Notes under the pieces: generated by a model
Databases searched by the model: none
What the model was told of the DNA's origin: nothing
The model's input: only the letters and a program-made list of their open reading frames with translations
From: a virus
Lineage: Duplodnaviria; Heunggongvirae; Uroviricota; Caudoviricetes
Direction: 5' to 3' (one strand)
IMG/VR virus record: IMGVR_UViG_2579778842_000003
DNA: 64,000 nucleotides
In this document: piece by piece, positions 35,449-35,523 of the stretch
Numbering within the stretch: position 1 is the first letter of the stretch
How the letters are laid out: every line of letters starts with the position of its first letter
Position numbers and translations under genes: made by a program

Positions 35449-35523
35449 GATTGCACCTTAATTAGAATAATTCGCATCGTGTTTGAACGGAATTTAACAC
35501 TAGTCACTTGTTAAGGATTACCA

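Follow-up and report, generated by a model that had tools for sequence, protein, structure and literature searches.

LPpro, a probable P1-type late promoter between prt and darB in a P1-like phage or plasmid prophage

Background

Bacteriophage P1 has eleven late promoters, which have in common a conserved inverted repeat of 9 bp, the binding site of the activator Lpa (PMC10695390). Lpa is a sequence-specific DNA-binding protein whose partner is SspA, a protein of E. coli associated with RNA polymerase (PMC1891329), and activation of late transcription by Lpa and SspA is likewise described in PMC8198154 and PMC8201110. Besides LPpro, the Lpa- and SspA-dependent promoters of P1 include LPs, LPlyz, LPdar, LPsit, LP23, LP26, LPmat, LPpac and LPhot; like LPpro they have no -35 hexamer, they are found upstream of morphogenesis, lysis or packaging operons, and a single activator, encoded by the same genome, serves them all.

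In P1, LPpro (AF234172, nt 17251-17269) is placed between prt (proA) and darB, and the same feature is recorded in P7 (AF503408, nt 21008-21026). Both prt and pro follow late kinetics in the RNA-seq study of P1vir (PMC8201110, Table S1). We considered here the spacer between prt and darB in the IMG/VR record IMGVR_UViG_2579778842_000003, of which a stretch of 64,000 nucleotides (the window, whose first letter is position 1) was analysed. A sequence-only reading had tentatively proposed that a 17-mer of this spacer may be an Lpa-dependent late promoter element, centred on ACTAGT and placed so as to serve both genes.

Results

Genome context and flanking genes

The window belongs to a P1-like phage or plasmid prophage. 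Over a 1.2-kb stretch around the spacer it is 98.6% identical to P1, 19 records of P1-group phages are 98-99.6% identical over the same stretch, and a 351-bp query around the spacer matched 494 plasmid records (487 of them with at least 95% identity), which are mostly P1-like plasmid prophages of E. coli. The window as a whole is collinear with P1 in the reverse orientation, running from roughly P1 51.6 kb downwards, past 0, as far as 84.3 kb, this collinearity being interrupted by a few replaced segments. A segment of about 5.4 kb (57717-63096) is absent from P1; it is inserted at the equivalent of P1 nt 85182, in the pmgT-pmgU region, and encodes DUF551, Ead/Ea22-like and PAPS-reductase-like domains. 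Further segments that diverge from P1 are found at 15949-21400 (the tail-fibre C segment) and 43010-44427, and the window lacks the IS1 and IS5 copies of P1. One breakpoint of P1 homology, at 5658, is exactly the upstream edge of the LPsit orthologue, and a megablast comparison gave no match between positions 4281-5657 and the segment of P1 with the predicted P1-P3pmgC promoters and the sim genes.

The spacer occupies 35449-35523, a length of 75 bp as the sequence-only reading had given it, with ORF ends at 35448 for prt and 35524 for darB, and the 17-mer singled out by that reading, aacactagtcacttgtt, is indeed present inside it at 35496-35512. To the left, the minus-strand gene prt (33739..35448) encodes a portal protein of 569 aa from a TTG start, 98.9% identical to Prt of P1 and assigned to the PHROG portal family with 870 bits. 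It is the first gene served by LPpro, and pro (32727..33776, minus strand; head processing, from the P1 annotation of its orthologue) is the second gene of this prt-pro operon. To the right, the plus-strand gene darB (35524..42291) encodes an antirestriction methylase/helicase of 2255 aa that is packaged in the virion, with an ATG start at 35524. The Shine-Dalgarno sequence of prt, AAGGTG (35454..35459, minus strand), is found 5 nt ahead of the TTG at 35448 and is conserved in relatives; that of darB, AAGGAT (35513..35518, plus strand), is found 5 nt ahead of the ATG, and relatives show no variation in this hexamer or in its distance to the ATG.

In the annotation of Cronobacter phage JK004 (L005, 1171) the prt homologue is begun at an upstream ATG that a 1-nt indel puts out of frame in P1-type sequences; the prt start common to the relatives is the TTG preceded by AAGGTG, at 35448 in the window. 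At the other end of the operon, the convergent late operons lyz-lydD-lydE and prt-pro nearly abut, the lydE ORF ending at 32723 and the pro ORF at 32727, and in P1 lydE and pro overlap by 21 nt. As the P1 record annotates no terminator at the 3' ends of these two genes (32700-32730 in the window), late transcription from LPlyz and from LPpro probably continues into the opposing operon in the antisense direction.

Identity with LPpro of P1 and P7

The GenBank records of P1 and P7 carry the labels "late promoter LPpro", "-22 region" and -10 at exactly the bases considered here, at the same place between prt (proA) and darB, in the same orientation and with the same flanking genes. The 19-mer of P1 LPpro, AAGTGACTAGTGTTAAATT, is identical in the window, so that the promoter shows no difference at all, and the 75-bp spacer differs from that of P1 only once, at G35474 (A in P1), in the prt leader. 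We put at about 90% the probability that we are dealing with LPpro, a late promoter of the P1 type that lies on the minus strand and drives the prt-pro operon. It is an already catalogued and ordinary member of its class and, judging by its sequence, points towards prt only. The suggestion of an Lpa-dependent late promoter was right, the site being identical to the LPpro feature of both records and, as described below, fitting the motif of the other P1 late promoters.

As the family set, we took all 11 late promoters annotated in the P1 record. Ten of them share the architecture box AAGTGACTT-N4-TANNNT with a 4-bp spacer, LPhot having a longer one; an AAC or GAC flank is present in 8 of the 10 late promoters of 19 nt, and every one of the 11 -10 hexamers carries an A in position 2 and a T in position 6. 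With LPpro left out, the nine remaining 19-nt promoters were made into a 22-nt matrix. This gives LPpro 23.5 bits, the fifth rank among about 128,000 positions; in 50 shuffles the best scores had a mean of 14.2 and reached 20.4 bits at most. A motif shared across the late operons, which would be expected from the sequence-only reading, is what this matrix recovers, the ranks 1-7 being without exception orthologues of P1 late promoters: LPs (13947..13968, plus strand, 27.0 bits), LPmat (45192..45213, minus strand, 24.8 bits), LPpac (52194..52215, minus strand, 24.7 bits), LPlyz (31770..31791, 24.2 bits, on the darB strand and the nearest late promoter upstream of darB), LPpro itself, LPdar (22532..22553, plus strand, 21.6 bits) and LPsit (5657..5678, plus strand, 17.9 bits), the last with a degenerate box, AAATGACAA.

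The strict pattern ACAWGTKAYT-N5-TANNNT occurs 4 times in the window for 0.02 expected. Only this pattern or the full 22-nt matrix separated the real sites: a loose pattern (box with at most 2 mismatches, spacer of 3-5, TANNNT) was undiscriminating, with 11 matches for 7.9+-3.1, and a candidate consensus, CACTAGTG, was rejected, with 12 matches at one mismatch for 16.4 expected. Two further sites came to light. One, at 22844-22865 (plus strand) in the lydA orthologue, some 300 bp past LPdar, is an unannotated late-promoter-like sequence, AACGAGTGAATATCGATAGCAT, whose 16.0 bits exceed the mean of the shuffle maxima (14.2) and fall short of the highest (20.4); either chance or an internal late promoter could account for it. 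The other, at 1685-1706 (plus strand), antisense to the 5' end of the repL orthologue, has a perfect Lpa box, AAGTGACTT, at 1688-1696, followed after 4 bp by CAGCAT (compare CAGAAT in LPmat); the full site scores 12.6 bits, and one perfect 9-mer box in 128 kb is about the chance level (0.5 expected).

Parts and geometry of the promoter

Read on the prt strand, the promoter is ...cttAAC AAGTGACTA GTGT TAAATT ccgttcA... Its Lpa box, the "-22 region" AAGTGACTA (35509..35501, minus strand), agrees with the consensus AAGTGACTT at 8 of 9 positions and has its dyad centre at 35505; the deviating base is the last, A for T, as also in LPsit and LP26. The (A/G)AC flank, here AAC, directly precedes the box (35510..35512), a 4-bp spacer, GTGT (35497..35500), separates it from the -10, and the -10 itself (35496..35491) is TAAATT, the hexamer that the P1 and P7 annotation gives and that LPpro has among the late promoters of P1, all these parts being on the minus strand. 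A mutant form of the box could, for example, be AACTCACTA in place of AAGTGACTA.

From the sequence and standard sigma-70 geometry, transcription is predicted to start at A35484 (minus strand), the seventh nucleotide after the -10. If so, the prt mRNA would have a leader of 36 nt, and the Lpa box would cover about -17 to -25, with its centre at about -21/-22. A -35 hexamer is absent: AATCCT, ATCCTT and TAATCC, at 17, 16 and 18 bp from the -10, share 1-2 of 6 positions with TTGACA, and a sigma-70 scan found no minus-strand promoter that uses the LPpro -10. The sequence-only reading had placed the 17-mer at about -20 to -40 for both genes, which is correct for neither; on the prt side it covers -12 to -28 from the predicted start A35484, and on the darB side it lies 12-28 nt before the ATG, against the Shine-Dalgarno core AAGGA, and hence within any darB leader that contains this core.

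The same reading had taken the element to be centred on ACTAGT (35499-35504). This hexamer is a perfect 6-bp palindrome, nested in a longer imperfect one, TTAACA-N9-TGTTAA (35494-35514), but the conserved dyad has its centre at 35505, which is 3.5 bp to the right of the centre of ACTAGT. In diverged relatives ACTAGT becomes ACTGGT while the promoter is kept, from which it follows that the constrained symmetry is AAGT-G-ACTT. This symmetry, centred at 35505, is by sequence the functional dyad, and ACTAGT is a by-product of the end bases of this particular box and the spacer; it occurs in none of the ten other P1 late promoters, LP26 having ACTAGC.

Conservation in relatives

Upstream regions of prt were collected from 83 loci (genome and viral contig collections), from Cronobacter phage JK004 and from an S. 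arizonae plasmid, giving 35 distinct sequences. Among these 35, the box with its AAC flank shows 0.037 substitutions per column per sequence, the 4-bp spacer 0.007 and the -10 0.010, compared with 0.181 for the prt leader directly downstream (35490..35473) and 0.124 for darB codons; 3 of the 12 columns of box and flank are variable, and one column of the -10. Box, spacer and -10 are thus shown by the alignment to be the constrained bases in relatives of P1 down to about 73% Prt identity.

The site is kept in JK004, in the S. arizonae plasmid, in IMG/VR contigs with 82-83% Prt identity and in Pantoea (73%), and over this whole range the spacer length of 4 bp is unchanged. The relatives at 82-83% read CAC-AAGTGACCA-GTGT-TAAATT or TACATT, and Pantoea reads CAC-AAGTAACCA-GTGA-TAAATT. 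In Chimaeribacter (56% Prt identity) there is only a half-site, AAGTGA, with a 5-bp spacer, and the fixed-spacing matrix fails there. The change of ACTAGT to ACTGGT is found in the 82-83% relatives, in Pantoea and in Chimaeribacter. Phage D6 (50% Prt identity) has no P1-type box directly upstream of prt; as prt there lies behind co-directional genes, it is uninformative for the footprint.

Expression of darB and alternative readings of the spacer

On the darB side, the Lpa box lies 15-23 nt before the ATG and abuts the Shine-Dalgarno sequence AAGGAT. The P1 record has for darB a promoter PdarB (35438..35468, plus strand, in the window), marked as predicted and of sigma-70 type, with TTGTCT-19 bp-TAGAAT; a sigma-70 scan picks CTGCCA-18-AATAAT (9 of 12 matches) instead of these hexamers. 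Its predicted start at about 35475 would give an overlap of some 10 nt with the 5' end of the LPpro transcript and, if PdarB is real, the Lpa box would fall in the darB leader, at about +26 to +34. Relatives with 56-83% Prt identity retain TAGAAT, except for Pantoea (TAAAGT), a conservation that is ambiguous because the hexamer overlaps the prt leader. A late promoter for darB with TAGAAT as its -10 was rejected, the 9-mer upstream of it, ATTGCACCT, matching the box at 4 of 9 positions and the conserved part of this 9-mer being the complement of the prt Shine-Dalgarno sequence. From the sequence, we would place the start of darB transcription separately and further upstream (the predicted PdarB, or readthrough), in which case the Lpa box would be part of the 5' leader.

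The kinetics of darB are those of a late gene. In P1vir RNA-seq its logFC, 4.83 at 10 min, has increased by 6.84 at 30 min, to 11.67 (PMC8201110, Table S1); in the same table, the genes of Lpa operons (n=37) have 4.19+-1.10 at 10 min and a rise of 6.78+-0.99, and the early, C1-controlled and plasmid genes (n=31) have 8.32+-1.15 and a rise of 2.78+-1.38. In a library that is unstranded (TruSeq RNA v2 kit), darB therefore falls within the Lpa-operon class and outside the early, C1-controlled and plasmid class. Upstream of darB as far as LPlyz (31770), the plus strand offers no further Lpa box that has a usable -10; the sole other plus-strand box between lyz and darB, AAGCGACTT at 35222, was set aside as unusable, having no -10. 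The P1 record annotates no terminator feature from lydE to darB. Late expression of darB could possibly come from LPlyz readthrough across the antisense pro-prt, from a late stimulation of PdarB, or from use of the box in both directions.

The last of these, in which one palindromic Lpa box would fire leftwards for prt and rightwards for darB, we regard as improbable. It has a precedent in the P1 record, where divergent genes lie around a single palindromic Lpa box shared by LP26 and LPpmgL, with a very similar local sequence, AACAARTGACTAG, and the plus-strand reading of our site, TAGTCACTT-GTTA-AGGATT, resembles that of LPpmgL, TAGTCATTT-GTTG-AATATT; the late kinetics of darB, the want of another usable plus-strand box from LPlyz onwards and the invariance of AAGGAT and of its 5-nt distance to the ATG also agree with it. 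However, this mirror reading on the darB strand scores 9.9 bits with the leave-one-out matrix, less than the mean shuffle maximum of 14.2, despite the presence of LPpmgL in the training set. In the canonical 4-bp register the -10 would be AGGATT (AGGATC in relatives), with a G at the key -11 position and lacking in position 2 the A common to all 11 late -10 hexamers of P1, and the start would land on the darB ATG. If AAGGAT (35513-35518) is taken as the -10 instead, the spacer becomes 3 bp, a length seen in none of the P1 late promoters, and transcription would begin on or next to the ATG, giving a leaderless or near-leaderless mRNA. In P1, by contrast, the LPpmgL side is equipped with AATATT, a -10 that is usable and stands 4 bp off the box, and with about 90 bp of leader ahead of pmgL, whereas here AGGATT or AAGGAT also serves as the Shine-Dalgarno sequence of darB, which the ATG follows at 5 nt; on the darB strand there is no second -10 with A2 and T6 that would stand at 4 bp and leave space for a leader. 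It is because AAGGAT is fully explained as the Shine-Dalgarno sequence of darB that we rate use in both directions so low, and Chimaeribacter has at this position GGAGAGGG, a Shine-Dalgarno sequence of the GGAG type and not a -10. The late kinetics come from an unstranded library and could equally be produced by LPlyz readthrough. Of the proposal that the element serves both genes, the prt half is supported, as LPpro, and the darB half is not (mirror reading of 9.9 bits, start on the ATG): the sequence offers no evidence that the Lpa box serves darB.

Still less credit can be given to two readings that need no Lpa. The palindromes ACTAGT and TTAACA-N9-TGTTAA are both really present and might form an operator by which C1, or an unknown repressor, controls both genes, and a C1-operator-like 17-mer, ATTGCCCTAATGTATTT (35578..35594, minus strand), lies 70-95 bp away inside darB, over codons 19-24. 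Yet the relatives that retain the promoter change ACTAGT to ACTGGT and the partner of TGTTAA to TTCACA, the ten other P1 late promoters have neither ACTAGT nor the outer arms, and the centres of the two palindromes (35501/2 and 35504) do not coincide with that of the conserved dyad, so that such an operator is highly unlikely. With a matrix made from the 14 annotated 17-nt operators of P1, the 17-mer of the spacer obtains -4.1 bits, and a C1 operator (ATTGCTCTAATAAATTT-like, 17 bp and asymmetric) was rejected for the spacer, where the best score is 7.2 bits. The ATTGCCCTAATGTATTT site, with 17.0 bits, is itself borderline, ranking 11 in the window and below all 14 annotated operators (at least 19.7 bits); the P7 record has it as a hypothetical operator Op(pro), the P1 record has no annotation there, and JK004 has at this position ATTGCTCTAATAAATCT, with a perfect consensus core, a conservation of which the encoded residues I-R-A could explain a part. 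Just as hard to credit is a reading at the RNA level, in which a hairpin of the darB leader, formed by the complementary 6-mers CTTGTT (35507-12) and AACAAG (35527-32) on either side of the Shine-Dalgarno sequence and the ATG, would sequester both. The fold of the putative leader is ordinary (-18.2 kcal/mol, z = -1.24, 19 of 200 shuffles being at least as good), the minimum-free-energy fold does not contain this hairpin, and codons 2-3 of darB, which supply AACAAG, are not conserved in relatives. RNA structure in the prt leader was rejected also (z = -0.07).

Discussion

LPpro thus remains our preferred reading of the spacer, and the activator that it would need is encoded in the same window: lpa (52244..52696, minus strand) is an intact ORF of 150 aa that matches Pfam PF25716 (BPP1_LPA) with 193 bits and the PHROG "Lpa-like transcriptional activator" with 284 bits. 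In the mechanism that we propose, lpa would be expressed early in lytic growth, and its product, Lpa, would bind the 9-bp dyad AAGTGACTA in place of a -35 hexamer. Together with SspA of the host, Lpa would then allow the sigma-70 holoenzyme to use the -10 TAAATT, and transcription would start near A35484, giving an mRNA with a 36-nt leader, the Shine-Dalgarno sequence AAGGTG and a TTG start. What this analysis contributes to the scheme is the identity with an annotated promoter, the membership of the motif family, the conservation, the absence of a -35 and the presence of lpa; the DNA binding of Lpa and the requirement for SspA are taken from the literature.

Beyond correct annotation the importance of the site is slight, LPpro marking where, in a P1-like element, the late operon prt-pro begins. 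What is added here is the strand, the register and the true dyad of LPpro, together with a footprint of its constrained bases. Late expression of darB is accounted for by no annotated late promoter; if the box were used in both directions, the rise of darB with Lpa-dependent kinetics, despite a sigma-70 promoter that is only predicted, would be explained.

A comparable arrangement exists in activator-dependent late promoters of other temperate phages, for example those activated by Ogr of P2 and Delta of P4, where a sigma-70 -10 is combined with a dyad that binds a small phage-encoded activator and replaces or supplements the -35; the P2 and P4 dyads are centred near -55, and the alpha subunit is contacted. 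By contrast with the P2 and P4 sites, the box of P1 has its centre near -22 and acts together with SspA (PMC1891329).
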